Virus record (IMG/VR): IMGVR_UViG_3300042261_000976
Span: 4,627 to 68,626 of that record
Direction: 5' to 3' (one strand)
Source of the DNA: a virus
Length of the DNA: 64,000 bases
This document shows, piece by piece, positions 684-52,312 of the stretch. The number at the start of each line of letters is the position of its first letter. Position 1 is the stretch's first letter. The notes beneath the pieces are model-generated. The model made no database searches. It saw only the letters and a program-made list of their open reading frames with translations, and was not told where the DNA came from. The translations under genes and the position numbers were made by a program.

Positions 684-1124
684 ATGACAACTGTACATGA
701 ATTAATACCAGTATTACAGACAGCTATCGGTCCTATGATTCTTATATCTGGGATTGGATTGTTAATGTTATCAATGTCAAATAGACTTGGGAGAATTATT
801 GATAGGTCTAGGGTTTTATCTAATGATTTACTTACAGATCAAGATAAGATTGAAAAGGAATTAGCCATTCTTTGGAAAAGAGCTAAGACTTTAAGAAAAT
901 CTATAGCTTTACTTTTATCCAGTGCCCTTTGTGCCGCTATTCTTATTATTATGATATTTTTTACGGCTTTGTTTCAGTTAGAAACTGCATGGTTATTAGT
1001 AACTCTTTTTACTATTGGTATGTGCTGTGTTATAACTTCTCTTTCTCTTTATATCTATGATATTAATATGTCTTTGGCAGCTATAAAATTAGAAATGCCT
1101 GCAAATATAATTAGAAAGAAGTAA
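684..1124 (+). CDS. small polytopic membrane protein (DUF2721-like)
   Basis: ATG 2 nt after previous stop; 3-4 hydrophobic helices. Confidence 0.5.
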   Translation: MTTVHELIPVLQTAIGPMILISGIGLLMLSMSNRLGRIIDRSRVLSNDLLTDQDKIEKELAILWKRAKTLRKSIALLLSSALCAAILIIMIFFTALFQLETAWLLVTLFTIGMCCVITSLSLYIYDINMSLAAIKLEMPANIIRKK

Positions 1125-1416
1125 TATACTTACTTTCATTGAGAAAACTCTCGAATTTTTTCATTATATTCTTTGTTCCACCTATAGCTATTTGATAAGC
1201 ATATTTTGTTGGAGGCCATTCTAGTTCTATGCCAATTTTTTTCATAGTTTCTGTAAGATTCACTCCCATTGCTTCCGGTCCTGTGGATACTACACATTCT
1301 GGATGATCTTTTTCAAATTTCAAGATCTCTTTCTTTAATTGTGACCTGGCTGTTCCCTGCCAATACAATACACATCTTTTTTGATAATCAGTCCAATCTG
1401 GGTGTTTTATTCCCAT
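1111..1416 (-). CDS. hypothetical protein; frame stays open upstream to ~1588 without ATG (possible frame break)
   Basis: track ORF; same frame open ~57 codons further up; ATG at 1600 is in another frame. Confidence 0.4.
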   Translation of the reverse strand: MGIKHPDWTDYQKRCVLYWQGTARSQLKKEILKFEKDHPECVVSTGPEAMGVNLTETMKKIGIELEWPPTKYAYQIAIGGTKNIMKKFESFLNESKYITSF

Positions 1417-1624
1417 TTTTTTTATATGTTCTCCTATATCAAACTTATTCCATATTATATAAAGAGGTTTATCAATTTTGAAATAATCTTCTAATTTAGG
1501 AAGACCTGGAGGACATTTATCTTTTCCCCAATTTGGACAACCTTTTGGAAGGTTTTCTACAAAGACCTCTAACTGAATAATCTATAACTGGATCAACTTT
1601 AGTGTACATATATTTTTATATATT

Positions 1625-1646
1625 AAAAATTAATATATAAAAATAT
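1625..1646 (+). promoter_or_regulatory. putative promoter TTAATATATAAAAATAT
   Basis: motif immediately upstream of ATG 1647. Confidence 0.3.
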
Positions 1647-2291
1647 ATGAAGACATTCTCTAATATAATTAAAGAAGCTAAATATTTTGAAGGAACACAA
1701 ATAGTTCAAATGACAAAAGAGCTATGTGCTAAATATTTGAACGATATTAAAGAACTTAATATAAGAGAAAGAGAATTAAACGAATATGAATGGCATTTAT
1801 GGTCAGATAAAGATATAATGATGGATCTTCCTATGAAATGGGAAATGAGTTATTTAATATTACTTGGGGATAAATTTATAGGATCACAAATCAATACTCA
1901 AAAAGAAACAAAAGATGGAGAAAAATTCATTCATACTAATAGAGTTATAATAGATAAAGATTATAGAAATTTTAAATTGTTATGGGAACTTTATCAGAAA
2001 TTATATGATAATTGTAAAAAACATGGTTTTAAATATTGCACTTGTTTCACACCATCCTTCAAAGTAAAAGAATTAAATACAAATATTCTTGGAATGGAAT
2101 TAATTAAAAACGGTGATATAGTAAGCCATTTCATAACATCTATAAAATGGCTATCAATGGATAATGATGGTAAACTTCATTACGAAGACGGTGATATGGG
2201 ATGGTATTTCATGATAAAAACCTTTCATGGAAATTTTCCAAAATTAGAAAAATCAAAAAAGACATTCATAGATAAGTCCCCATATTTATAA
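1647..2291 (+). CDS. hypothetical protein with CTS-like N-terminus MKTFSNIIKE
   Basis: ATG ORF preceded by TTAATATATAAAAATAT motif. Confidence 0.5.
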   Translation: MKTFSNIIKEAKYFEGTQIVQMTKELCAKYLNDIKELNIRERELNEYEWHLWSDKDIMMDLPMKWEMSYLILLGDKFIGSQINTQKETKDGEKFIHTNRVIIDKDYRNFKLLWELYQKLYDNCKKHGFKYCTCFTPSFKVKELNTNILGMELIKNGDIVSHFITSIKWLSMDNDGKLHYEDGDMGWYFMIKTFHGNFPKLEKSKKTFIDKSPYL

Positions 2292-3911
2292 TTACTTTAG
2301 ATATTTAATCGCATCTAAAAAATATTTAGGCATCATCTTCCTATTGTATCTTAATATATCATCAAAAGAACTATCTAATATAAAAGTGTGACTCCAGTCA
2401 GTATCACTTCTGGTAGATCTACCATACGCTTGAACTATATCTACAATAGTTCTCCAAGCATACCAATCCTTTTTTGATTTCTGTCTAGCTTTAACCTTAT
2501 TACTCGAAATGTTTGGATAAGGAACTTTCAACAATATCTGAAATCTACTTAAATCATCATCCATAGAAATTCCAGAAACCATTGATGGTGAAACTATTAC
2601 ACCATTCTTTTTCTTCTTCATTTTATCAAGTTGTTTCTCTCTATCTTCTGTTTCGTGGAATATAAGACGTTTATCGTCTATTGCATTTTCTAACCATTTA
2701 GCAATTTCATAATTGGTTGTATGTATGATTCCTCTATTATCTTTATATTTTGCTAATATTTTATTTATTACTTTTAATTGTTCTTTGAAGGTAGCTTCCT
2801 TTTTTTCATAAGTCATTTTCCCAGCTTGGTAATAATATAAAGGGCGATTTTTGACAGGAAATGTAGAATCTACTTCAAAATAGTCAGTTAAATCTTCATC
2901 AAATCCATTAAGATAAGAAAATATATTTTTGTCTAAAATAGAACCACTCATAAATATCACATGGTCATATTTGCTCCAAATAAAATCATCAAGATAAACA
3001 TGTCCCCATATTGGTTGTAAATTAAGTTCTATTTCATTCAGTTTGCTCTTTGTAATATCAAGAGTCCAATTATATTCATTCTTTTCAAAATCTTTTAATA
3101 ATCCTTCGAAATTCTTTTCTGCACTATCAATATTAACAATATAATTAGCGTGAGCGGCTTTTAATTTTTCATTTGGAACATCAGAAAGAGTATCTATGAA
3201 ATGTTGTTTTAATTCTGCCAGATACGGTATGAAATCTCTTTCTAAGAAACTTATAAATCCACCCGGAGTTTTTATTCCAGCAAACTTACGAATATACGAA
3301 TCAACCACTTGATCTTCAACTCCATATAGTTTTAGAGCTCTTGGGCTTAATTTTACTGAAATAAAATCGCAGAAAACAGATTCAAAGTCGTGAGCTTCAT
3401 CCACTATTAAAACGTTAGCAGATCTTTTTTGCATTGTTTCTGGAACGAAAAATGCAAAGCTATTGAATAGATGGAAATTTGTTAAAGACATTGTTCCTTC
3501 TGTCCAAGCTTCTTTTGCTGCGTCATATTGACAACTGGCGCATGGCATAAGTTTAGATGCTCTATTTAATTCTTTACCTGTATGACAATCCGTTTTGTGT
3601 CTAATACACTTATAATTAGATTGTCCTCTAAGGTCGTTTATGGAGTCGAATTCCTTTTTATATTGTTGTTGTAGTATTTTGCTATTAGTAATAATATCAA
3701 ATTTTGCTGATGTGTTTATGTAATTTTTATACCAATTCATAAACATCATAGCAAAATAGGATTTTCCAGAACCTGTTGGGGCATTCAATAAAATGAATTT
3801 CTTACCATTATTTATTGAATGTTTAGTGAGATTGAATATCTCAATTTGTTGTTCTCTTGGTTTATATTTTAATGGAAAATATATCTTTAATTCATCGTCT
3901 ATAGAAATCAT
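2292..3911 (-). CDS. DinG/XPD (Rad3)-family ATP-dependent DNA helicase with FeS cluster
   Basis: PREQQ, APTGSGKS Walker A, DEAH box, 4-Cys cluster CIRHKTDCH..CASC, C-terminal AYGRSTRSDTD motif. Confidence 0.8.
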   Translation of the reverse strand: MISIDDELKIYFPLKYKPREQQIEIFNLTKHSINNGKKFILLNAPTGSGKSYFAMMFMNWYKNYINTSAKFDIITNSKILQQQYKKEFDSINDLRGQSNYKCIRHKTDCHTGKELNRASKLMPCASCQYDAAKEAWTEGTMSLTNFHLFNSFAFFVPETMQKRSANVLIVDEAHDFESVFCDFISVKLSPRALKLYGVEDQVVDSYIRKFAGIKTPGGFISFLERDFIPYLAELKQHFIDTLSDVPNEKLKAAHANYIVNIDSAEKNFEGLLKDFEKNEYNWTLDITKSKLNEIELNLQPIWGHVYLDDFIWSKYDHVIFMSGSILDKNIFSYLNGFDEDLTDYFEVDSTFPVKNRPLYYYQAGKMTYEKKEATFKEQLKVINKILAKYKDNRGIIHTTNYEIAKWLENAIDDKRLIFHETEDREKQLDKMKKKKNGVIVSPSMVSGISMDDDLSRFQILLKVPYPNISSNKVKARQKSKKDWYAWRTIVDIVQAYGRSTRSDTDWSHTFILDSSFDDILRYNRKMMPKYFLDAIKYLK

Positions 3912-4499: not shown

Positions 4500-4780
4500 G
4501 TAAAAACGATAAAATAATAAAAAAATTTAGTATCTTTGAGAATAAAATCTTTGGATTTAAATCTTTAGATTATGTTGATAGTTTTGCAGAACTCTTTACC
4601 GTTATATCTGAAATGAAAAGAAAAAAGATAATAGACGGTGAAGGGAATTTATTAATTGATCCATATGAAATAGGGCATAAAGTTCCAGGGTTTGATGATT
4701 TATTCGAAGAGACAGAAGATTATTTTGCAACTTTAGCTATAGTTAAAGATATACTAGATAAGTATTATAAAGTTATATGA
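4496..4780 (+). CDS. hypothetical protein
   Basis: track ORF, ATGA-coupled to neighbours. Confidence 0.45.
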   Translation: MSKNDKIIKKFSIFENKIFGFKSLDYVDSFAELFTVISEMKRKKIIDGEGNLLIDPYEIGHKVPGFDDLFEETEDYFATLAIVKDILDKYYKVI

Positions 4781-16488: not shown

Positions 16489-16908
16489 TTATCGTGGAAA
16501 ATCTTTGCCTCTTTCAGCAAAATGAACCTCGTATGTTTTTGATTCAAATTGATTTATTAAATAATTTTTAATTTCTTCTGTTTCGAAATATTTGCAAGAA
16601 AATATATCTATAAAAACATAATTTTTCTTTGGAAATGTATGGATGGAACAATGCGACTCTGCAATTATAACAATCCCTGTTATGCCTTCATCTTCTGGCA
16701 CTAAACCGCTATACGGGAACACGTAGGGTTGTGTTATTTTAGTCATTCCTATCATATCTGGGATGTTGTATAGGAGTTCATAAATGAACTTGTAATCGTT
16801 TAGTTTTTCAACATTACACTCATTTAAATCAAACATTAAATGAGGACCAAAACTCGTGTTTTTCATCTCTTCATACTTATTATTTTTTAACTTAGTCCAT
16901 AAGAACAT
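16489..16908 (-). CDS. speH: S-adenosylmethionine decarboxylase proenzyme, prokaryotic SpeH/SpeD type
   Basis: GPHLMFDL..IIAESHCSIHTFPKKNYVFIDIFSC matches the pyruvoyl-AdoMetDC processing region. Confidence 0.7.
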   Translation of the reverse strand: MFLWTKLKNNKYEEMKNTSFGPHLMFDLNECNVEKLNDYKFIYELLYNIPDMIGMTKITQPYVFPYSGLVPEDEGITGIVIIAESHCSIHTFPKKNYVFIDIFSCKYFETEEIKNYLINQFESKTYEVHFAERGKDFPR

Positions 16909-17041: not shown

Positions 17042-19330
17042 TTACCAACTTCCACCTGCTCCACCGCCTCCGCAAGATCCACCGCCGAATCCTCCGAAAC
17101 TTGATGAACTATCTCTCCTTCTCCTATCCTCTTCCTCTTCTTCCTCACGTTTACGTCTTCTTTCTTCTTCTCTTCTTCTTTCTTCTTCTCTTCTTTCTTC
17201 TTCTCTTCTTCTTTCTTCTTCTCTTCTTCTTTCTTCTTCTCTTCTTTCTTCTTCTCTTCTTCTTTCTTCTTCCTCCTCATTTCCTCTACCCACTCCAATT
17301 ATTTTATCAAGAGCGGCCAAAGTTGTACCAAGAAGAATAGAAACTCTCATAACATCTTTCATTGGAATATTATCATCCCATGCTTCTTCTCCATAAGGAT
17401 CTTCCTTGGCATGTCCGCCAGCTCCTTTATCCTTATTATATTGAGCTATAATAGCCTGGGCTTTTTGCGCAGAACCTCTATCAAGATAGCCGTTTTGAAT
17501 ATATGAATTTATATCTTCTAGTTTTTTATTCAATGTGGTAGGTCCAGCATCAACATATTTTTTAGCCTGCATTATATCATTGAATCTTTGAACAGGTTTT
17601 TCCATTTCAGTACCTAAGGCATGAGCTTTTCCAGCATATTGTGTTAATAACTGCATTCCCTTTGTTAAATCTGTCATGTAAATGGCACCTATTTGATCTA
17701 CAAAATTCTTCAAAGATTCTATATCGCCATCTTTCACATTAACTTGAGTGTCATATCCCATTTCTATTACTTTACCAGTATATTCTTTAGCTTTTGCTAA
17801 TTTAGCCATAAGAGCTCTTTTTACTGCATCGAATCCTTCAATATTGGATTTTATTCTTTGGAAATCTTGATCCATTTCTTTATACTGATTATAGTATGCG
17901 GTTACTCTTCCTAATAATTTTTGATATTTACCCAAAGATTCGTTAGAAACATCAATGTTTTCGAATTTCAATTCATTCATTATTCCTAAACATGTATTAG
18001 CAACATCTTTCATTTGAGTAGGAGCATCTTCATAACCTTTCAATTGATTAAATGTGTTAGTTACTGAATTTTTAGTTTTAATTATGCCTTGCTCAATTCT
18101 TTTTATATTTTCTAATGTTGCTATGTATCCATTAAGTAAAGTTGATACTTCCGTTAATCTTTGTTCATTGCTGATTTTTTTCTTTTGTAGTTCAGCGACA
18201 GCTTGTTTCATAGAATTAAGAACTTCATTGTCGTTAAAAATAGGATCTCCAGTGTCTATAAGATCTGCTATATTTAAGTCTAAAGCAGCCAAATCATCTT
18301 TTGTTCCTTTTATTTTTCTAGATAATTCTTTTCTTTTCTTATACGATGATGCTATTAGATAACCCACTAAACCTAATACTAAAGCTAATAAAAGGAATTC
18401 CCCAGCTCCAATAAAGAAACTTTTAACATTTTCTTTATGAATTTGTTCATATTTTTTATCTAGTTCTTTCTTTCTCTCTATTGGAATATTACCAAATTCT
18501 TGTTTCATTTTTCCTATTAATTCAGAAAATCCTTTTTCATAATTGCCTTCTTTAAAGTTTGATACAAGATAGTTTTCACCATATCTTTTACAAAGAGCGT
18601 CAGGCAATATATCTTCCATTCCATAACCTGTAGCAATCCACCATTTTCTATCGCCCATACTAGCCAATATAAGAATGCCATTATTGGCTCCTTTTTTACC
18701 TATTCCCCATCTATTGAAAGTTTTTGTTGCTAAATCTGAAGCATCTTGATCTTGTAACGAAGGTAAAGTGAGGACTGCTATTTCAACACCAGTAAGTTTC
18801 TCGTATTTGAACAATACCTGATTTAATGAGTCCTCGAATGTGGGTCTCATAAAATCCCCATAATCACTTATTAAAGCTATTCCATTACCATACTTGGCTG
18901 GTTGGACTTTTGTAACATCCATACTAACGGCAGAATTGGATGGTGGAGTAAAACTCCATTTATAATGAGTTGATTTATTGCTGGTATAACTGTCACATTT
19001 TAGATATGTTTTTACCATATTATAATTCAAATTAGTACCATTTAATTTGTTGAATTCCTGTAACTTTTTAATTATTTCTTCTTGATCATCATCACTAACA
19101 TCGGTATCTCTTGTTAAAGTCGCCGCGAATTTAGCCAAATCTATAGTTCCTTGTGGAACTTTTTGAGCCCATTCTATTTTAGTATTAAGATCAGCCGCTT
19201 GTACTTTAGGTGGTACTATACCTAAATTTAAGAGCATCATGAAGGTTGCCAACCAAGTTTTCCAACCTTCTTCTTCGTTTAACATGTCTGTAGTCAGATA
19301 TTTTTCGTATGATAATATAAATTCTGCCAT
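17042..19330 (-). CDS. TPM (TLP18.3/Psb32/MOLO-1) phosphatase-domain membrane protein with coiled coil, DPYGEEAW, (EEERR)n and Gly-rich C-tail
   Basis: GVEIAVLTLPSL..WGIGKKGANNGILILASMGDRKWWIATGYGMEDILPD; TM helix; C-term SFGGFGGGSCGGGGAGGSW like bacterial YgcG-type proteins. Confidence 0.7.
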   Translation of the reverse strand: MAEFILSYEKYLTTDMLNEEEGWKTWLATFMMLLNLGIVPPKVQAADLNTKIEWAQKVPQGTIDLAKFAATLTRDTDVSDDDQEEIIKKLQEFNKLNGTNLNYNMVKTYLKCDSYTSNKSTHYKWSFTPPSNSAVSMDVTKVQPAKYGNGIALISDYGDFMRPTFEDSLNQVLFKYEKLTGVEIAVLTLPSLQDQDASDLATKTFNRWGIGKKGANNGILILASMGDRKWWIATGYGMEDILPDALCKRYGENYLVSNFKEGNYEKGFSELIGKMKQEFGNIPIERKKELDKKYEQIHKENVKSFFIGAGEFLLLALVLGLVGYLIASSYKKRKELSRKIKGTKDDLAALDLNIADLIDTGDPIFNDNEVLNSMKQAVAELQKKKISNEQRLTEVSTLLNGYIATLENIKRIEQGIIKTKNSVTNTFNQLKGYEDAPTQMKDVANTCLGIMNELKFENIDVSNESLGKYQKLLGRVTAYYNQYKEMDQDFQRIKSNIEGFDAVKRALMAKLAKAKEYTGKVIEMGYDTQVNVKDGDIESLKNFVDQIGAIYMTDLTKGMQLLTQYAGKAHALGTEMEKPVQRFNDIMQAKKYVDAGPTTLNKKLEDINSYIQNGYLDRGSAQKAQAIIAQYNKDKGAGGHAKEDPYGEEAWDDNIPMKDVMRVSILLGTTLAALDKIIGVGRGNEEEEERRREEERREEERRREEERRREEERREEERRREEERRRKREEEEEEDRRRRDSSSSFGGFGGGSCGGGGAGGSW
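17110..17285. repeat. 15-nt tandem repeat (tcttcttctcttctt..) encoding (EEERR)n
   Basis: visible periodic repeat; generates spurious overlapping ORFs 17020..17298 and 17101..17340. Confidence 0.8.
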
Positions 19331-19679: not shown

Positions 19680-20251
19680 TTCTCCTCCTCCCAATCTTCT
19701 TCGCCATATGGATCTCTCTCTTTTAAGACTTTTTCTCTTTGTCTTAATATTTCTTTTTCTTCTTCTGTTGGTTTAAATGTATCTGGTAAAGATGATCTAT
19801 ATTTTAATTTATCAGCCAATACGTCCATTTTATTAACACAATTAGCTACAGATTTTCTATTTCCATCTTTTACAGCCTGATATATTGTAACTTTTATATC
19901 TTGTAATTGTTCTTCTATATCTGGGTTCTCTTCTAATAATTCTTTGGCTTTACGATATTTTCTATCAGTCTTAATTAGATGGGATCTATTACTTTTTATA
20001 TTTATATAAAGATCTCTGAATAAACCTCTATACCAAGCTATTCCTGTTGGTAATATAAAAAGAGATCCTAAAATATAAATTAATATATGCCATCACATAT
20101 CCATACTCATTAGATTAAATAATTGACCTAAAGCTCCAATAGAAAAGAAAAAAGCTATAGCTTGAGCATCATCATTTTTAAGTTTTCTCATCATAAAATC
20201 ATGATATACACTTTCATTTAGATATTCGTTATATGTTTGTATATTGTTCAT
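19676..20251 (-). pseudogene. tandem paralog of 20248..20853 interrupted by in-frame TGA (20093-20095); ends DPYGEEDWEEEK
   Basis: MNNIQTYNEYLNESVY.. then TGA then WHILIYILGSLF.. continues in the same frame for 139 codons; aligns to neighbour paralog. Confidence 0.5.
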
Positions 20252-20853
20252 CTTTTCTCCCACCAATTTTCATTTTTAGGTTCATCCTCCAATTTTTCTT
20301 CCCCGTATGGGTCGTAGGCTTTCTTGGCTTTAATTCTGGCTTTCTCTTCTTCAGTGTATGCAAATAATTCACCAAGAGATTGTTTTTTCTTCAATTGTTT
20401 TGATAATTTATAAATATCATGAACACAAAGAGATATATTTTCTTTGTTTTCATTTTCTATAGCATCTCTCATTCTATTTTTTATATCATTCAACCTATCC
20501 TCTATTTCTGGATATTCTTCAATCATATCCATCATTTTTTTGTATTTTTTATTTGTGCTTCTCAATAACGTTCTTACTCTCAAAGAATCGTATGGATTTC
20601 TAAAAATGGCTCTGAGAATTAAAACAAAAGCAGGAATCGATAAAAAACCACCAATTAAAATGACTATTAAATGTCTCAAAGGAGTAACTATATCATCAGT
20701 ATCAAAAGGTAAATGTGCTCCTTGACAAAGACCAGCTAAAACAACCATAATTAATGTTATCATTCCCTCTTTATTATCTATATCGAAACGTTTATTTATC
20801 CAATCATAGAAACCTTCATTTAAATAATCGTCATAATATTTTAGATTGTTCAT
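20248..20853 (-). CDS. membrane protein (2 TM) with C-terminal DPYGEEKL; paralog of 19676..20251
   Basis: likely start MNNLKYYDDYLNEG at 20853; ATGA-coupled to next gene. Confidence 0.55.
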   Translation of the reverse strand: MNNLKYYDDYLNEGFYDWINKRFDIDNKEGMITLIMVVLAGLCQGAHLPFDTDDIVTPLRHLIVILIGGFLSIPAFVLILRAIFRNPYDSLRVRTLLRSTNKKYKKMMDMIEEYPEIEDRLNDIKNRMRDAIENENKENISLCVHDIYKLSKQLKKKQSLGELFAYTEEEKARIKAKKAYDPYGEEKLEDEPKNENWWEKR

Positions 20854-21153
20854 AATTTTGCGTATTTTTTTTGCATTATTATTGCTATATATTAAATAAT
20901 AAAAACAAAAAATCAAAAGAGGTTAATCGGGATTTTTGGAAAAGGTGATTCGTTACAAACAGAATATTATTAACAATTTCTAATTAGATATAGACTTGTT
21001 ATAGTTGCCATAGTAAAACTAATATAAATAGAGAAAATTGGCAAACTTTTTTCGATAATATTATAAAAGAAAGATATGACAAATTGACATACGATATAAT
21101 TGGCATAGAAATTGATAAATAAAAATAAAATTAATGTAAAAGAAAGGAAAAAA

Positions 21154-21176
21154 TATGAAAGGAAAATGTATTGGGA
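21154..21176 (+). CDS. dnaK: DnaK (Hsp70) exon 1: MKGKCIGI(D)
   Basis: encodes the canonical DnaK N-terminus MGKIIGIDLGTT.. when joined to 21432. Confidence 0.65.
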
Positions 21177-21431
21177 TTAAATAGATCGGTCCCCTTATTC
21201 AGTAATGAATAATGATAAAGGCTTAAACTGCTGGAATCCCCTTAGAGCTTTTTTAACTACAACATAATTTGAAAAAATAAGTGTGAAAGTTTAAAAATAA
21301 AAAAGATTGGGCAATCAGCATCCAAACATCGTATAGATGGAGGTTCAGAGACTATAATAGCCAATCCTTAAAGGATTATTGTATAGTCCAGACTACAAAA
21401 GAAATTGCTTATGAAAGTAAGTGTAGTAAAG
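21177..21431 (+). other. group I self-splicing intron (255 nt, no ORF) interrupting dnaK
   Basis: exon ends in U pairing with G of internal guide GGTCCC (P1: gggaU/Gtccc); intron ends in G; P7-like GTTCAGAGACTATAA (21343-57) and GTATAGTCC (21381-89) resemble the Tetrahymena P7 strands. Confidence 0.65.
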
Positions 21432-23277
21432 TGATTTAGGGACTACGTTCTCGGCAGTTGCAGTTATGGAAAATGGAGTACCTACAATTATTGTAAATAG
21501 TGAAGGAGAAAGAACAACTCCTTCTGTTGTCGCTTTCCTTGATAAAGGAGAGCGAAAAATTGGTAATCCAGCTCGTAGACAGGCTGTTACAAATAGTAAT
21601 AAAACTGTTCATTCCATTAAGAGGTTTATGGGAGAACATTATGATAGACTAACAAATGAAATTGATCGTTATGCTTATAAGGTAGTTAAGAAACATGATA
21701 TGCCTTATATTGAAATTGATAAAAAGGAATACTCTCCACAGGAAATTAGTGCAGTTATTCTTCAAAAGATGAAAAAAACTGCCGAAGACTATCTTGGTCA
21801 AAAAGTTGAAAGTGCTGTTATTACTGTTCCAGCATGGTTTAATAACGATCAACGTCAAGCTACAAAGGAAGCAGGTGAAATTGCTGGATTTAAAGTAGAA
21901 CGTATTATTAATGAACCTACTGCTGCAGCTTTGGCTTATGGGCTTGATAAGTTGAAGAAAGATATGAAGATTGTGGTTTTCGACTTTGGAGGTGGAACAT
22001 TTGACGTTTCTGTTCTTGATTCGGGTGATGGTGTATTTGAGGTTAAATCTACATGTGGAGATGTCCACTTAGGAGGTAACGATGTTGACGACGTTATCGT
22101 TGACTGGTTAGTAGATGAATTCAAGAAAGACAACGGAATAGATTTGAGAAAAGATCCAATGGCTTATCAAAGATTGAAAGATGCAGCTGAAAAGGCAAAG
22201 ATTGAACTTTCTTCTAATACAGAAACAGAAATAAATCTTCCTTATATCACTGCCATAGATGGCATGCCAAAGCATATGGTATCTAAATTGAGTATAAGTA
22301 AATTCGAACAAATTGCTGACAGTGTATTTAAGAGACTTATTCCAATTAGTGAAAAAGCTCTTAGGGATTCAGGAATAGAAAGAGATAAAATTGATGAGGT
22401 TATTCTTGTTGGTGGTTCAACTCGTATTCCAGCAGTTCAGAAAATAGTAAAAAGTATTTTTGGAAAAGAACCTAATAGAAGTATTAATCCTGACGAAGCA
22501 GTTGCTTGTGGAGCAGCAATTCAAGGTGGAATTATTAGTGGTGAAGTAACAGATATTCTTCTTCTTGATGTTACTCCTCTTTCACTCGGTATTGAAACAA
22601 TGGGTGGAGTAATGACAAGATTAGTAGAAGCTAATACTACAATTCCAACAGAGAAATCACAAATATTCTCTACCGCTTCTGATAATCAGCCATCTGTAGA
22701 AATTCATGTTCTTCAGGGTGAAAGACCAATGGCGAGTCAGAATAAGACTTTAGGTAGGTTTCATTTGGATGGTATTCCACCAGCTATGAGAGGTATTCCA
22801 CAAATTGAAGTAAAATTTGACATCAACGCTAATGGTATTCTTGAAGTTATAGCTATTGATAAAGCAACAGGAAAGAAACAGAACATTAGAATTGAGAATT
22901 CTTCAACTCTTCCTAAAGAAGAAATCGAGAGAATGAAGAATGAGGCAAAAGAAAATGAGGAAAACGATAGAAAAGAAAAGGAAAAGATAGATAAGCTCAA
23001 CCAAGCAGATTCGATGATTTTCCAGACCGAAAAACAAATCAAAGATTTCGGAGACAAATTGACAAACGAAGATAAGAACAATTTGAACGAATCTCTTGAT
23101 AAATTGAGAACAGCACACAAGGGTCAAAATTTAACAGATATTGACAATTGTATGAAAGAATTAAATGAAAAATGGAATTTGATTTCAACTCGAATGTATC
23201 AACAAACATCTTCACAACAACAGGGACCAAAAGAAGAACAACCTGTAGAAGATGTAGAATTTCAAGAGGTTAAGTAA
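21432..23277 (+). CDS. dnaK: DnaK (Hsp70) exon 2, bacterial DnaK type
   Basis: [54 protein letters not shown]-terminal EDVEFQEVK; near-collinear with E. coli DnaK. Confidence 0.9.
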
Positions 23278-23310
23278 AAAAAAGAGGGACTTAAGTCCCT
23301 CTTTTTTTTA
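23278..23310 (+). terminator. intrinsic terminator hairpin agagggac-ttaa-gtccctct + T8
   Basis: perfect palindrome immediately after dnaK stop; also serves the convergent minus gene. Confidence 0.55.
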
Positions 23311-24999
23311 TGTCCCATATGATATATCTGATGCTCCTCCAATATTCCACGTTGGACCTTTATAATCTTCATCTACCATAATTTTTCCTTCTCCACTACA
23401 ATCGTCACATTCTCCTCCCGTGCTTTTTCTGCCCCAACCTTTACAAGAAGGACATTCTATTTGTTTATAATGTTTTATTTTAGCTTTAGATTTTGGTTTT
23501 ACAACATCGTCAAATTGTTTATAAAAATCGTTTTCAATATTTGATTTTGGTTTTGATTTTGTTTTACTGGCTAAAAATGTACTTATTTCTTGTTCCTTTG
23601 ATTTTGATGATTTTACATTTTTAGATAGTTTTTCATCACTTGCACTCAAAGTGCCTGGTTCTACATACAATCTTAAAGTTTTCTCATCTTCATAATCTCC
23701 TCCGTGAAAAACTATCATCCATTTACCGTCTGTTTTTCTAACACCATCAAACTGTCCGATTTTACCATTATACTTACTACCTGGAAGATTATATTTAACG
23801 CGTTGTCCTTGTCGAAATGGTGAAGTAACTTTTTTACCAACAGGTTCCCATTTTCCTCCGCTATAATCACCATAATCTGAAGCTTTCTTAAAATCCCACC
23901 AATTATCATCATATGATTTATCGGTATCTACATATGGAGATATTTTCTTCTTTGGTTTCTCTACAACACCTAAACCTTGACAATGCTTACACGGTACTGG
24001 TAAAAGTAAGTCGTTCACATGATGTTGTGATGTTAAAGTATAACCTCTACCGTTACAATATTCACATTCATCGTATTTCGACGGATCTGGATTTCTTTTT
24101 TTCTTATTGTCGCCGTATGGCGATTTTTTCTTTTTTAATTGTGTTTCATTTGGTATAACTCCTTCGCCTCCACATTCATCACAAGGATCATCGTAAGTCG
24201 ACATAACAACACCGCTTCCCCCACATTCTTCGCATTCTGATCCGTCATTTAATTCTCCTTCTCCATCACATTCATCACAAGGATCTTCAGTTTCGATTTC
24301 TAAGGTTCCTGCCCCGTGGCAAATTGGACATTCTATGTCATCTTTATCTTCGTCTTCGTTTTCTTCTTCTTTGTCTAGTTTAAGAGCACGTAACATTTCT
24401 TCCTTTGAAATTTGTGGTAAATCTCGTCTCGCTCCGAAATCTGATATTTTCACCTTAAACGGTTCCGTTTGTTTTGGTTTTTCTTTTGGTTTAGTTGTAC
24501 CAACAACATCAACTATGCCTACTTTTCTAGCTATACTCCTTTCTCTCTCATCTTCTTCCCATGATTCTTCACCATAAGGATCTAAATCCTTCATAGCTTT
24601 TTCTTTCATATTATGTAGAATATAAGCACATTTATCTATCATGAAATCAAGAGTTTCCTTATGTTGTTCTCTTTTTGTTACTTTTATTCTTCTTTCATAA
24701 GTTTCTTGATTAAGATTATCTTTCGCTGTAAGTATATAAGTTATAACATCATCTACATCTACAATCTTCTTTATTGTAAATGTAAAATATTTCTCTACAC
24801 ACTTAGCTTCTTTCTCGTTACTATCTACTTCAAAATCATCATGTTTTAACATTCTTATTTCCTCTTCAGAGAATAAGTCAGCTGGACGTTTTTCTATTCT
24901 TTCGCGCTCTTCATCGTCGCGATGGTATTTTAGTTTACCAGAACTAAGTTTTCTTTTCAATTCTTCGTTTATCTTATTATATCTTTGAATATAATCCAT
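23308..24999 (-). CDS. DnaJ-type zinc-finger (7x CxxCxGxG) protein, no J domain; contains DPYGEESW
   Basis: CPICHGAG, CDECDGEG, CEECGGSG, CDECGGEG, CEYCNGRG, CKHCQGLG, CPSCKGWG, CDDCSGEG. Confidence 0.6.
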   Translation of the reverse strand: MDYIQRYNKINEELKRKLSSGKLKYHRDDEERERIEKRPADLFSEEEIRMLKHDDFEVDSNEKEAKCVEKYFTFTIKKIVDVDDVITYILTAKDNLNQETYERRIKVTKREQHKETLDFMIDKCAYILHNMKEKAMKDLDPYGEESWEEDERERSIARKVGIVDVVGTTKPKEKPKQTEPFKVKISDFGARRDLPQISKEEMLRALKLDKEEENEDEDKDDIECPICHGAGTLEIETEDPCDECDGEGELNDGSECEECGGSGVVMSTYDDPCDECGGEGVIPNETQLKKKKSPYGDNKKKRNPDPSKYDECEYCNGRGYTLTSQHHVNDLLLPVPCKHCQGLGVVEKPKKKISPYVDTDKSYDDNWWDFKKASDYGDYSGGKWEPVGKKVTSPFRQGQRVKYNLPGSKYNGKIGQFDGVRKTDGKWMIVFHGGDYEDEKTLRLYVEPGTLSASDEKLSKNVKSSKSKEQEISTFLASKTKSKPKSNIENDFYKQFDDVVKPKSKAKIKHYKQIECPSCKGWGRKSTGGECDDCSGEGKIMVDEDYKGPTWNIGGASDISYGT

Positions 25000-25082
25000 G
25001 TTTTTTAAGTTTACGATTTAATGCTATATATTATTTTTTTTAGACAGTTCTTTTTAATATCTTTGTAAAAATAAAACTGTAA

Positions 25083-25277
25083 ATGTGCATATTTGATCAT
25101 CAACCGCATAGTGATAGATTCACTTTGATAGGAATACCAAGTGGAGAGGTTCTTGAAGTAAACGGAATACAATTTTATAATTTATATGAGAATGATTTAG
25201 TGAATTTTAATTGGGAAAAAGAATTTTGGTTCATTCTTGATGAAAATATGAATAAAATAAGATTGAAATTAAAGTGA
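25083..25277 (+). CDS. hypothetical small protein
   Basis: track ORF. Confidence 0.3.
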   Translation: MCIFDHQPHSDRFTLIGIPSGEVLEVNGIQFYNLYENDLVNFNWEKEFWFILDENMNKIRLKLK

Positions 25278-25483
25278 CGGATTTGTTTATGCCAATGACA
25301 ATCGAAGTAGAATTGACCGGATTTCCTAGTGGTCAAGTTATTAATGTGTATTCTGCCTTTATACAGACACTATACACATATGGTTATATTTTAAAACATC
25401 CCAAATATGGATGGACATTCACAGACGATAATTATCATAAAATTATAAAAATAATTAACAAAAGAGATTTAACTTTAATATAA
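25274..25483 (+). CDS. hypothetical small protein (GTG start)
   Basis: track ORF overlapping previous stop. Confidence 0.3.
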   Translation: MTDLFMPMTIEVELTGFPSGQVINVYSAFIQTLYTYGYILKHPKYGWTFTDDNYHKIIKIINKRDLTLI

Positions 25484-25490
25484 AAAGATT

Positions 25491-26045
25491 ATGGATATAT
25501 TTAGACCTAAAATAGAAGATGAGGGTAAATCATTTATAATTAGACCTTTACTAAATGCTAAAGGTTTGAAAAATAAAGAACCACATATAGTTCATTATGA
25601 TATAGGATTAAGAGGATTTATGAATGTGCCAATACAGGGGTATTTATGTTTTGCTCTTGTCGATGATGAATTAAAAATCATCAGATTTGGAAAAGTCATG
25701 TTAGATTTTATTAAAAGTAATAGTGAACATGGTGCAGACTTTCTTTTCATGAATAATGATAAGGCTATTAAAATGAATGTATCAGTAAAAAGAATTAATA
25801 ACGATCGTGAAAAAGCAGCTTTTTTTAACCCTTCTTATGAAATTGTTCAAGATAATAAATATAGGTTTGATGATACTCCTGAAAAAAGAAAATACATAAG
25901 CGATCTATTAATGAATACAGAACTCGACTTAAATGACGCCTTAAAAGAAGAAATAGAAAAAGTCGCAAAACTTAAAGAGAAAGAAGAACAAAGACTGAAA
26001 TTCGCCGACGTTGATCCTTACGGTGAAGAAGATTGGGGATTCTAA
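25491..26045 (+). CDS. hypothetical protein ending ..DVDPYGEEDWGF
   Basis: track ORF; C-terminal motif. Confidence 0.5.
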   Translation: MDIFRPKIEDEGKSFIIRPLLNAKGLKNKEPHIVHYDIGLRGFMNVPIQGYLCFALVDDELKIIRFGKVMLDFIKSNSEHGADFLFMNNDKAIKMNVSVKRINNDREKAAFFNPSYEIVQDNKYRFDDTPEKRKYISDLLMNTELDLNDALKEEIEKVAKLKEKEEQRLKFADVDPYGEEDWGF

Positions 26046-49319: not shown

Positions 49320-49378
49320 TAACTTTAATTATTTTTTATCTTACTTTTTTTATATATAGATAAAAAGTGGATCGAATT

Positions 49379-52312
49379 ATGATTAAATTGTTAGTTATTG
49401 AAGATCACCCAAGTATGATTTCCGGTTTAGAATGTTTATTAAAAGGAGATGTGGAAGTGACATTTTCATCTAATGATATGGATAATGCCTTGAATTTCGA
49501 TCATACTAAATTCGATATAATATTATTAGATTTATTATTACCAGAGACAAACCCTATAAATAATGTTAAGAGATTAAAAGAAATTTATCCAAACCCCATT
49601 GTTATATTTACTTGTGAAGATTCTAATTTATGGAAGAAAAAGATGTTTGATATTGGTGTCATGGGTTATTTAATCAAAACATCTAATAAGGAAAAAATAG
49701 TAACTACTTTACATCAAGTTTTAAAAGAGTTTAAAAGAGATAAAGAATTGCAATATCCAAACTTGAAAATATGTAATCTAGATTTTTTTAATTTTTTAGA
49801 TGATATGTTTTTTGTTTTAGACTTAAAGGGAAACATTATAGAGTATAATACAAGTGTAACAAGAAAACTTAGATATTTAAAAGAAGATTTGATTGGTAAA
49901 AATATACAAAAATTTTTCAATAGTGATGTATCTTCTATTTTTACTGGTGAATATTCTAATAAAAGAATTCCAATTTTAAATTCAGATGGAAATAGTTTAT
50001 TCGTAGAAATACGAAGTTTAAAAATACACGCTAGATGTAGCTTAGAAGATTATTTATTAATAGTAGCGAAAGATATAGAAGCAGAGGAGAAATATAAAAA
50101 TATTTTTGATAATTCTACTCAAGGAATTTTTCAATCTACAATGGATGGGAAGTATATTACAGTAAATCCGGCTTTTGCTCAATTATGTGGATATGAAAGT
50201 CCTGAAGAATTATCTACTAGTGTTAAAAATATTTCAGATCAAATATACGCAAATAAAAGCGATAGAGATCAATTTCTAGATACATTATTAAAATATGGTA
50301 AAGTAAAAAATGCCGAAGGACAAATCAAAAGAAAAGACGGCGATAAAATATGGGTTTCTTGTAGTGCTAAATTAATAAAAAATAAAGACGGAACACCATT
50401 ATACATAGATGGTATAATAGATAATATCACAGATAAAAAAGATACAATAGAAAATTATATTTCTTTATTGAAAGCTATTCCGGATATGATGGTCAGAGTG
50501 AGAAAAGACGGTCTTATTATGGATATAAAACCAGGTGAAGGAACATATTCTGAATTAGGACAATCTACTCATTACATAGGTGGAAATATAGGGAATTTAC
50601 CGTTTGGTGATGTAATAACGACTAAATTTAAAAATATTATAAAAGAGGTTATTGAAAAAGAAGAACCTATTGAATTTTGTTATGCTATTTTTATTAAAGG
50701 AATTGAAAGGAATTATTATTCAAGAACTGTAAAGAATGGTGAAAGTGAAGTTATAGTAATAGTCAGAGAAATAACAGAAGAAATAAATATAAGAAATGAT
50801 TTAACATATTCCAGAGATTATTCTGAAAATATAATCAATACAGCAAATGCCATGATTATAGAATTAGATAATAGTGGCAATATAATCACTTTCAATAAGG
50901 CAGCTGAAGAGGTTACTGGATATAAAAAAGAAGAACTTTTTGGTAAAAATTGGTTCGAAACATTATGTCCCAAAGATAGATTCCCTCATGTGTGGGAAGA
51001 ATTCAATGGATTGATGAAACAAAAAATAGAGGCTAAAGACTTTGAAAATCCAATTCTTACAAAGAGCGGGGAAGAGAGATATATTGTTTGGAAAAACAAT
51101 GAAGTAAAATCTAATAATAAAGTCGTGGGTGTAATATCTTTCGGTCTTGATATAACAGAAATGAAAAAGACATCGGAGGAATTAAAAATAGCCAAGGAAA
51201 AAGCAGAGCAATCAGATAAAATGAAATTAGAATATCTTTCTAACATGAGTCACGATCTTCGTACCCCAATGAATGCTATTATAGGATTTACAGATTTATT
51301 AAGAGCTAATAATCTAACCAAAAACGAAAAACACGATTATATTAATACTATTATAAATAACGGTAAATATTTGATGGCTCTTATAGACGATATTATTGAC
51401 ATTTCTAAAATTGACGCTGGAAGTCTTAAAGTAGAAAATAGAGATTTTGAAATAAATAAACTCATGGAAGAACTTCGTCTTTCATATATAAAACAAATTA
51501 AAGATAAAAATATAGAAATTATAATAGATATAGATGTTAATAAAAATATTATAATACAATCTGATAAATATAGACTAAGACAAATTATGGCAAATCTTAT
51601 AGGAAACGCTATAAAATTTACAAACGATGGTTATGTCAAATTCGGATATAAAATACTGAATAATAGAATGTTAGAAATATATGTTGAAGATACAGGTCCA
51701 GGTATAGAGAAACAAAATCAGAAAATAATTTTTGAAAGATTTAAGCAATTAAATGATACCAATAAATATAAAGGAGCTGGACTTGGTTTGTCTATAAGTA
51801 AATCTTTGGTTGAACTATTAGGATTTAAAGAAATAAAATTAGTATCTGAATTTGGTAATGGTAGTAGATTTTATTTTAATGTGCCTTACGATGTGAAAAA
51901 TTTTACTTATATGTCTGATATTAAAGAAAGAAAACATAAGAAAATAAATTTTGCTGGAAAAAATATTCTTTTAGTAGAAGATAATAGAGATAGTAGAACA
52001 ATTATGAAATCTTATCTACAAGATACAAAAGCCAATGTTATAGAAATGAAAGATGGTATTGGTATATTAGATGTTATAAAAGAAAAAGAAATAGATTTAG
52101 TTTTATTGGATATTGGTCTTCCTGGAGGTAAAAATGGTTATGTAATATTAGAAGAAATAAAAAATTATGATAACAGATTACCAGTTATTATAGAATCAGC
52201 TTTAGCTATGCCGGATCAAAAAAATAAGGCATATGATTTAGGATGTGATGATTTTATATCCAAACCTTTCAATAGGGAAGATTTTCTAAACAAAATAGAT
52301 AACTTACTATAA
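49379..52312 (+). CDS. hybrid sensor histidine kinase: REC - 3x PAS - HisKA - HATPase_c - REC
   Basis: start at ATG 49379 (MIKLLVIEDH); ILLDLLLP Asp pocket; MSHDLRTPMNAI H-box; NLIGNAIKFT / DTGPGI / GAGLGLSISK N,G boxes; C-terminal ILLVEDN..LVLLDIGLPG receiver. Confidence 0.8.
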   Translation: MIKLLVIEDHPSMISGLECLLKGDVEVTFSSNDMDNALNFDHTKFDIILLDLLLPETNPINNVKRLKEIYPNPIVIFTCEDSNLWKKKMFDIGVMGYLIKTSNKEKIVTTLHQVLKEFKRDKELQYPNLKICNLDFFNFLDDMFFVLDLKGNIIEYNTSVTRKLRYLKEDLIGKNIQKFFNSDVSSIFTGEYSNKRIPILNSDGNSLFVEIRSLKIHARCSLEDYLLIVAKDIEAEEKYKNIFDNSTQGIFQSTMDGKYITVNPAFAQLCGYESPEELSTSVKNISDQIYANKSDRDQFLDTLLKYGKVKNAEGQIKRKDGDKIWVSCSAKLIKNKDGTPLYIDGIIDNITDKKDTIENYISLLKAIPDMMVRVRKDGLIMDIKPGEGTYSELGQSTHYIGGNIGNLPFGDVITTKFKNIIKEVIEKEEPIEFCYAIFIKGIERNYYSRTVKNGESEVIVIVREITEEINIRNDLTYSRDYSENIINTANAMIIELDNSGNIITFNKAAEEVTGYKKEELFGKNWFETLCPKDRFPHVWEEFNGLMKQKIEAKDFENPILTKSGEERYIVWKNNEVKSNNKVVGVISFGLDITEMKKTSEELKIAKEKAEQSDKMKLEYLSNMSHDLRTPMNAIIGFTDLLRANNLTKNEKHDYINTIINNGKYLMALIDDIIDISKIDAGSLKVENRDFEINKLMEELRLSYIKQIKDKNIEIIIDIDVNKNIIIQSDKYRLRQIMANLIGNAIKFTNDGYVKFGYKILNNRMLEIYVEDTGPGIEKQNQKIIFERFKQLNDTNKYKGAGLGLSISKSLVELLGFKEIKLVSEFGNGSRFYFNVPYDVKNFTYMSDIKERKHKKINFAGKNILLVEDNRDSRTIMKSYLQDTKANVIEMKDGIGILDVIKEKEIDLVLLDIGLPGGKNGYVILEEIKNYDNRLPVIIESALAMPDQKNKAYDLGCDDFISKPFNREDFLNKIDNLL

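Follow-up and report, generated by a model that had tools for sequence, protein, structure and literature searches.

The DNA considered here, referred to as the window, is a stretch of 64,000 nucleotides (nt) from the IMG/VR virus record IMGVR_UViG_3300042261_000976 (positions 4,627 to 68,626 of that record). Close to its 5' end, a dnaK gene in this window is interrupted by a sequence which very likely represents a group I intron without an open reading frame (ORF), residing in the isoleucine codon of the GIDLGTT motif of a huge-phage dnaK. The gene is composed of the following elements.

21143..21148 (+): Shine-Dalgarno-like AAAGGA, 6 nt before the dnaK start codon, by direct sequence reading
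21155..21177 (+): dnaK exon 1, ATG AAA GGA AAA TGT ATT GGG AT
21178..21431 (+): predicted group I intron, no ORF, 254 nt, starting with U and ending with the omega G 21431
21182..21184 (+): in-frame UAG, second codon within the intron
21432..23277 (+): dnaK exon 2, the first base of which completes the isoleucine codon; stop codon at 23275-23277

Exon 1 codes for MKGKCIG plus the first two bases of the isoleucine codon, with the intron entering 23 bases after the gene start, and the preceding AAAGGA presumably functions as ribosome-binding site. When read without splicing, positions 21155-21178 encode MKGKCIGI, followed by K and TAG, resulting in the short ORF ATG AAA GGA AAA TGT ATT GGG ATT AAA TAG (MKGKCIGIK*). 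Recoding of stop codons was considered as an explanation of the gap and was ruled out, as UAG, UAA and UGA are each present in frame within the 254 nt. Exon 1 and exon 2, on the other hand, join in frame to give a DnaK of 622 amino acids (aa) beginning with MKGKCIGI, and the spliced junction in the RNA would read ATTGGGAT joined straight to TGATTTAGGG. The spliced protein matches the Pfam HSP70 profile from position 2 to 599 at 815 bits, whereas the unspliced 603-aa ORF, in which the GIDLGTT phosphate loop is missing, matches only from position 16 to 599 (783 bits); splicing regains profile positions 2-15 and 32 bits. Directly upstream of the long HSP70 frame there are stop codons, and neither ATG nor GTG nor TTG is found in frame between the last of these and ATG 21466, the first possible start. 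The JGI/IMG and Logan gene calls begin at exactly this codon, giving a 603-aa "molecular chaperone DnaK" from Met-20 (21466-23277, +) and overlooking exon 1; the longest contig with this call has 114,058 nt. Recognizing the intron restores the real 622-aa protein where the public calls give a DnaK without its ATP-binding loop. An earlier note on this DNA, made from the letters alone, had already proposed that the long ORF has no in-frame start upstream and that the true N-terminus MKGKCIGI is encoded before an intervening sequence. These proposals hold, and an alternative start that would yield full-length DnaK without exon 1 does not exist, but the coordinates given had to be shifted: the ATG is at 21155, so that 21154-21176 is incorrect for the N-terminus, and not 21177-21431 but 21178-21431 conforms to the group I rules.

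For classifying the intervening sequence, covariance models were employed. In a search of positions 21100-21520 (421 nt), the Rfam model RF00028 (Intron_gpI) aligned end to end, with model positions 1-253 on window positions 21168-21411, at 34.1 bits and an E-value of 3.7e-7, which by arithmetic scales to about 6e-5 for 64 kb. In addition, an independent model (R1) of the P3-P8 core, consisting of 178 positions with 42 pairs, was built from nine related phage introns, the window being excluded; the source introns were obtained by collecting IMG/VR phage introns with the P7 motif and choosing the closest ones. R1 gives one match in the window, at 21217-21389, which spans the whole model at 170 bits (E-value 2.8e-31) and in which 42 of 42 pairs are canonical. 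A second intron of this family was not found in the 64 kb when running R1 with filters off (next best E-value 0.17), and scanning the window with the P7 motif for further introns returned chance-level matches only.

The structure is also reflected in the pattern of substitutions. When 94 distinct family members are aligned on R1, 93.5% of the cells are standard pairs, compared to 37-43% in slid controls with the 3' partners shifted by 1-3 columns, and compensatory changes on both sides are present at 40 of the 42 pairs. Among the 14 full-length introns from the dnaK site treated below, 92.3% of cells pair versus about 40% in slid controls, with covariation at 7/7 pairs of P2, 4/4 of P3 and 6/8 of P5a; across the whole family, P5a covaries at all eight pairs. 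It has to be considered that the search pattern predetermined the P7 strands and that any alignment fitted to a model is biased in favor of the structure of that model. Given the slid controls and the count of different pair types, little doubt remains about the predicted structure despite this bias. MAFFT alignments put P6 and P8 one column off in several sequences, and the value of 67% for P8 in the dnaK-site alignment is due to this misalignment, as it amounts to 94% in the model-based alignment. By every computational test applied, the intervening sequence is supported as a group I intron, with its splicing being predicted. The following helices can be deduced.

21173-21177 with 21189..21193 (+): P1, exon GGGAU paired with the internal guide GUCCC
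21182..21188 (+): P10 intron strand UAGAUCG, pairing with exon 2 UGAUUUA 21432-21438
21195..21212 (+): P2 hairpin, 7 base pairs (bp) UUAUUCA/UGAAUAA, GUAA loop 21202-21205
21220..21223 (+): P3 5' strand GGCU, pairing with AGCC 21359-21362; every P3 pair varies on both sides
21229..21234 (+): P4 5' strand UGCUGG, pairing with UCAGCA 21315-21320
21239-21241 (+): P5 CCC, pairing with GGG 21309-21311
21248..21305 (+): P5 extension with P5a of 8 bp (21248-21255 with 21298-21305), a 2-bp continuation and P5b
21322..21343 (+): P6, CC/GG closing pairs and CAUC/GAUG stem, with a conserved AAA / GA internal loop between them
21348..21356 (+): P7 5' strand GAGACUAUA, pairing with UAUAGUCC 21382-21389
21359..21362 (+): P3 3' strand AGCC, forming the P3/P7 pseudoknot with P7
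21363..21377 (+): P8 hairpin, AAUCCU / AGGAUU with loop UAA
21393..21426 (+): P9, outer CUACA/UGUAG and inner CUUAU-GAAA-GUAAG, GAAA loop 21413-21416

The final five nt of exon 1, GGGAU, constitute the 5' strand of P1, with a U21177·G21189 wobble at the 5' splice site. The guide GUCCC is invariant and the U·G kept in all 14 distinct same-site introns, whereas P10, with seven consecutive bp in the window, has 3-6 in the others. In P7, G21348-C21389 is followed by the bulged A21349 and then by G21350-C21388, which is predicted to be the guanosine-binding pair by analogy; the arrangement matches C262-G312 / A263 / G264-C311 of the Tetrahymena intron. The P7 pairing is invariant in every homologue, partly through the search pattern, and in P9 the pair that closes the inner hairpin shows covariation (U·G, U-A, G-C, C-G), the remainder likewise being fixed by the search pattern. 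GNRA loops cap P2, P5b and P9, the one on P5b being GAAA (21271-21274), and an A-rich bulge, UUAAAAA, is located on the 3' side at 21291-21297. The spacer between P7 and the 3' strand of P3 is AU only (21357-21358). Introns of subgroup IA2 hold P7.1/P7.2 in this place, for which two nt leave no room, and the window intron is therefore not IA2-like. Its core rather looks IC-like, with a covarying P5a/P5b extension carrying a GAAA loop and the UUAAAAA bulge, but with no P5c three-way junction seen. All three forward frames of the intron hold stops, and only a 35-aa ORF with TTG start on the minus strand overlaps it when ORFs of at least 30 aa are considered. Several of these points had been anticipated in the earlier note, namely the pairing of the U at the end of the 5' exon with the G of an internal guide GGTCCC 11 nt into the intron, the terminal G (G21431), the absence of an ORF and the two P7-like strands (GTTCAGAGACTATAA at 21343-21357 and GTATAGTCC at 21381-21389). 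Its central claim, that dnaK is split by a compact group I intron, is borne out by the Rfam alignment, the family model, the covariation and the empty sites described in the following.

The nearest record to this part of the window is that of a 735-kb uncultured phage (LR756501/LR756503), with 74.7% nt identity over half of positions 20000-26000. The three closest dnaK genes, from LR756501/LR756503 (L001, 84.6% aa identity) and from two IMG/VR relatives (L006, 83.9%; L007, 79.9%), are all uninterrupted. In L007, the DNA reads ATTGGGAT|TGATTTAGG, which is the same as the predicted ligated junction. The comparison with intron-less dnaK suggested earlier has consequently a clear outcome, as the closest relatives possess a precise empty site exactly at GI|DLGTT. 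By searching with a 3'-junction pattern, a same-site intron was found in at least 16 further contigs, 2 viral and 14 metagenomic, to which the same correction of the dnaK annotation applies. In 14 of 14 distinct complete copies, exon 1 is short, encoding M..IGI and ending in GGGAT, and the intron of 254-278 nt starts with U and ends with G. Ten of the 14 reach an in-frame stop at 2-3 codons from the intron start, the remaining ones (L171, L224, L228, L236) at codons 4-12. A search of IMG/VR with the exact 21-mer of the window from P7 to the 3' strand of P3 gave no match, indicating that the collection searched does not include the window itself. No same-site intron was detected among representative genomes of 185,579 species with the narrow 3'-junction pattern, by which absence from cellular dnaK genes is unproven; of the 13 cellular junction matches, none codes for a DnaK N-terminus downstream and none matches R1. 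Matches on L213, L218, L238, L241, L246, L248, L250, L256 and L257 were discarded as chance occurrences without an intron core. Such matches lie in bacterial coding sequence translating to DLGLKEPFTGQVP, the pattern alone being unspecific.

A number of results weigh against a functional group I intron in dnaK. The RF00028 scan proposed in the earlier note did yield a match, but its 34.1 bits are below the curated gathering score of 50, an operational and not a biological criterion, and scans of the whole window with this model at either the gathering threshold or an E-value cut-off reported nothing, which reflects threshold and filter effects. P1, P7 and most of P9 do not vary in the alignments and contribute no covariation support, in part because exon constraint and search patterns fixed them. 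Furthermore, the minimum-free-energy fold does not exceed shuffled sequence in stability (z = -0.81), and the G+C content of only 32% was counted on the same side, although just because of this composition the z value is uninformative. The spliced 622-aa protein is absent from a collection of 15 billion proteins by exact look-up. The low Rfam score and the public calls giving exactly the 603-aa product would fit a decayed, splicing-dead remnant, leaving dnaK as a pseudogene or as the source of a truncated protein from ATG 21466. This account is nevertheless very improbable. All core helices have been preserved, the match to the family model containing no non-canonical pair, and exon 1, the Shine-Dalgarno-like sequence, the U·G, the terminal G and P10 have all been kept, while 14 distinct introns maintain the architecture with compensatory changes. 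Moreover, the truncated protein would miss the phosphate-1 loop (HSP70 profile positions 1-15), and the remainder of dnaK matches HSP70 over its full length with a high score.

For a short, AT-rich gap with an in-frame stop after the junction, one could likewise imagine a different type of insertion, for instance a miniature transposable element, a group II intron or some other intron, combined with translational bypassing or with synthesis of two polypeptides. Yet the two group I models each align from end to end, and covariation backs the structure. Bypassing is known from gene 60 of phage T4, where a gap of roughly 50 nt is crossed, which is far exceeded by the 254 nt found here, and a peptide of eight N-terminal residues cannot provide a beta strand and the phosphate loop in trans. 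There is hardly any probability left for this explanation, and an assembly artefact or chimera that set an intron-like fragment before dnaK has to be judged equally far-fetched. Although the metagenomic source might invite such suspicion, the sequence around dnaK recurs with 100% identity in two further public assemblies, a JGI contig and a Logan contig, by which a one-off misassembly is excluded, and 16 other contigs from different datasets show the same gene-intron architecture. The group I intron is thus clearly the preferred reading, and it remains to weigh how it reached this site. The introns of L215, L231, L226 and L219 are 87.5-89.9% identical to the window intron, whereas identity drops to 64-73% in the first 420 nt of exon 2; for L215, the values are 89% for the intron, 64% for the exon and about 51% for DnaK at the aa level. 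L220, L230 and L227, with exons of like identity (70-72%), have introns of 75-77% identity only. This departure of intron from exon similarity and the absence of the intron from the three closest dnaK genes favor lateral transfer, and suggest that the intron moved between divergent phage dnaK genes at one conserved site. Purely vertical descent from an ancestral intron-bearing dnaK, with precise losses in several lineages, appears less plausible, but retains a fair minority share of the probability. It agrees with the insertion site being identical everywhere and with L220, L230 and L227, where intron divergence (75-77% identity to the window) is near exon divergence (70-72%). Strong purifying selection on the ribozyme could also raise intron identity, but the 87.5-89.9% are global values over the whole length of 254 nt, including loops and the P5 extension, and both the four introns that are more alike than their exons and the three intron-less closest genes speak against vertical spread.

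Within the intron there is no homing endonuclease, all frames being closed and the same-site introns not exceeding 254-278 nt. A regular-expression search for GIY-YIG and LAGLIDADG motifs in window ORFs of at least 60 aa was negative, and Pfam scans of 28 window ORFs, among them 18 dnaK neighbors, did not reveal an endonuclease domain, HNH motifs not having been searched exhaustively. That no homing endonuclease was found in or near the intron has to be added to the points above that speak against the proposed interpretation. For endonuclease-free spread, which is taken up below as speculation, candidate routes would be reverse splicing and exon-homology recombination at the invariant GIDLGTT codons. 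With one ORF-less lineage, one invariant site and a history conflicting with that of the host gene, the copies represent a dataset on endonuclease-free intron movement.

Beyond the anatomy, covariation, empty sites and restored frame demonstrated here, the course of the reaction can be inferred from the canonical group I pathway. Accordingly worded as a prediction, dnaK would be transcribed as a single RNA, in which the intron would fold into the P3-P9 and P4-P6 domains, with the GNRA loops of P2, P5b and P9 stabilizing the fold. The guide GUCCC would pair with GGGAU at the end of exon 1 and thereby set the U·G wobble at the 5' splice site, where an exogenous guanosine bound in P7 would attack the phosphodiester after U21177. 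The terminal G21431 might then take over the guanosine-binding site, the 7-bp P10 would align exon 2, and ligation of the exons would result in the mRNA for the 622-aa DnaK. From unspliced RNA, only the nine residues MKGKCIGIK or a Met-20 DnaK without phosphate loop would be obtained. On such RNA, the UAG at 21182-21184 may release ribosomes before they arrive at the guide sequence, a reading supported by 10 of the 14 distinct copies, in which a stop in frame likewise comes early. Similar early stops are known in other phage introns. The strands of P1 and P10 as well as the in-frame stop fall in the region that an initiating ribosome would cover, the 5' splice site being only 23 nt from the start codon. 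Because of this overlap, splicing and DnaK synthesis could depend on translation load, GTP or temperature. A role of the dnaK-site intron beyond that of a passenger, either in gating DnaK production or in endonuclease-free spread between co-infecting huge phages, is, however, quite doubtful at present and is put forward as speculation.

Upstream of dnaK, about 40 nt before its start, positions 21101-21115 (+) read TGGCATAGAAATTGA, which fits TGGYAY-N5-TTGA and, in its GG-N10 spacing, agrees with -24/-12 promoters of the sigma-54 type, except that GA replaces GC. The motif is kept upstream of dnaK in intron-less as well as intron-bearing contigs (L001, L006, L007, L171, L215, L219, L220, L227, L231). 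As there are only three matches in the window, TGGYAY-N5-TTGA is not a general promoter here. On the other side, dnaK is convergent with a gene at 23308-24999 (-) for a 563-aa protein with at least three DnaJ-type CXXCXGXG zinc-finger repeats (PF00684, 6.3e-15), in which no J domain was detected. This protein may be a phage-specific DnaK partner; the pair of dnaK and zinc-finger gene is also present on JGI contig L205. Between both genes lies the following feature.

23283..23310 (no strand assigned): GC-rich hairpin, AGAGGGAC-UUAA-GUCCCUCU, between convergent dnaK and DnaJ-zinc-finger gene

In the DNA, this palindrome is perfect (AGAGGGAC-TTAA-GTCCCTCT) and bordered by a run of A and a run of T. 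From its sequence, it is probably a bidirectional terminator; a scan for consensus terminators did not list it.

The window as a whole is AT-rich (25-36% G+C), contains no tRNA genes and encodes phage-type functions, that is, a dUTPase, a phage metallopeptidase, a helicase, a 5'-3' exonuclease and MazG. Several other genes represent unusual cargo. An 805-aa protein (30785-33202, -) combines a Major Vault Protein shoulder (PF11978, 1.6e-27) with a vault repeat (PF17795, 2.4e-12), vault domains being an unusual family for a phage-like genome. Similarly, a 981-aa hybrid sensor histidine kinase is encoded in this phage-like DNA at 49367-52312 (+), showing several PAS-family matches, HisKA, HATPase_c and two receiver-domain stretches in Pfam. 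An S-adenosylmethionine decarboxylase (16489-16908, -; PF02675, 1.4e-28) adjoins a 762-aa TPM-domain protein (17042-19330, -; PF04536, 1.9e-36). Outside the window, viral contig L110 (IMGVR_UViG_3300042691_033386) carries eight intron cores of the same family within about 2.7 kb (777-3477, -), with some starts only about 270-300 nt apart, leaving room for very short exons only between some of them; Tandem Repeats Finder did not find a tandem repeat on L110. Seven same-family cores each are present on L101 and L135, and six each on L117 and L119.

Among the well-studied group I introns, the IC1 intron in the large-subunit rRNA gene of Tetrahymena thermophila has 413 nt and is located in a nuclear rRNA gene, in contrast to the 254 nt within a protein-coding phage gene described here, and its P2.1 and P9.1/P9.2 have no counterparts in the window intron. 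Nevertheless, the core motifs are nearly the same, with GUUCAGAGACUAUA against GUUCACAGACUAAAU at J6/7-P7 and UAUAGUC as P7'. Further similarities are the A bulged ahead of the G-C guanosine-binding pair, a CAGCAGCCAAG-type sequence at the P4/P6 junction and a P5 extension with GAAA L5b loop and A-rich bulge. The IA2 introns of T4 td, nrdB and nrdD and of Twort orf142-I2 resemble the window intron in being phage-borne, in interrupting highly conserved codons of protein genes and in having a stop soon after the 5' splice site. They are self-splicing, which for the window intron is predicted only, and those of T4 carry endonuclease ORFs, whereas the window intron has none. IA2 is the commonest viral subtype (PMC11835236).

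With regard to mobility, the cyanophage psbA intron may offer a parallel. It is reportedly accompanied by a free-standing homing endonuclease, an arrangement that Zeng, Bonocora and Shub are said to have termed "collaborative homing" in 2009. This intron is ORF-less and reportedly passes from one phage allele to another at a single conserved position without coding for an endonuclease of its own, as is suggested for the dnaK-site intron. The psbA case includes a free-standing enzyme while none was found near the window dnaK; the parallel is offered as a hypothesis for the mobility step.

In large phages, many ORF-less group I introns occur across many kinds of genes (PMC12880540, PMC7886860). 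Jug jumbo gut phages hold about 18 compact ORF-less introns per genome, with a mean of about 206 nt, which interrupt essential genes such as terL and nrdD and for which metatranscriptomic data support splicing (PMC12880540), and crAss-like phages (Delta/Zeta) have up to 14 introns per genome (PMC7886860). Compared with these by description only, the 64-kb window contains one intron of the dnaK-intron family. In the main text of PMC12880540 and PMC7886860, dnaK is not among the host genes named, and a report of a group I intron in dnaK or hsp70 was not found in the searchable literature.

Group I introns are also well documented in staphylococcal phages (PMC4124061). Two of these belong to the same RNA family as the dnaK intron according to R1, one located between two endolysin coding sequences of Staphylococcus phage phiSA_BS2 (104 bits), which belongs to the Twort-like Herelleviridae with split endolysin, and one in the joined-exon vRNAP beta gene of jumbo phage MarsHill (88.7 bits). 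Their cores share 75-79% BLASTN identity with that of the window intron, and conserved protein genes are interrupted in both cases. Some staphylococcal introns hold endonuclease ORFs, which the window intron does not, and the Twort nrdE and orf142 introns were reportedly shown to self-splice (Landthaler et al. 2002, cited in PMC4124061). In view of family members in endolysin and RNA polymerase genes of cultured Staphylococcus phages and of the many ORF-less introns of large phages, the assertion of the earlier note that a self-splicing intron in a chaperone gene of a phage-like element is unusual was overstated, and knowledge of group I introns and huge phages in general is unchanged. The carriers differ, as the staphylococcal ones are Firmicutes phages of 135-270 kb while the window derives from an AT-rich relative of a 735-kb uncultured phage, and so does the interrupted gene, endolysin or RNA polymerase there and dnaK here. 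Members of this intron family are thus far from rare in large phages. The novelty lies in the gene concerned, as dnaK adds a chaperone to the phage genes known to harbor group I introns.

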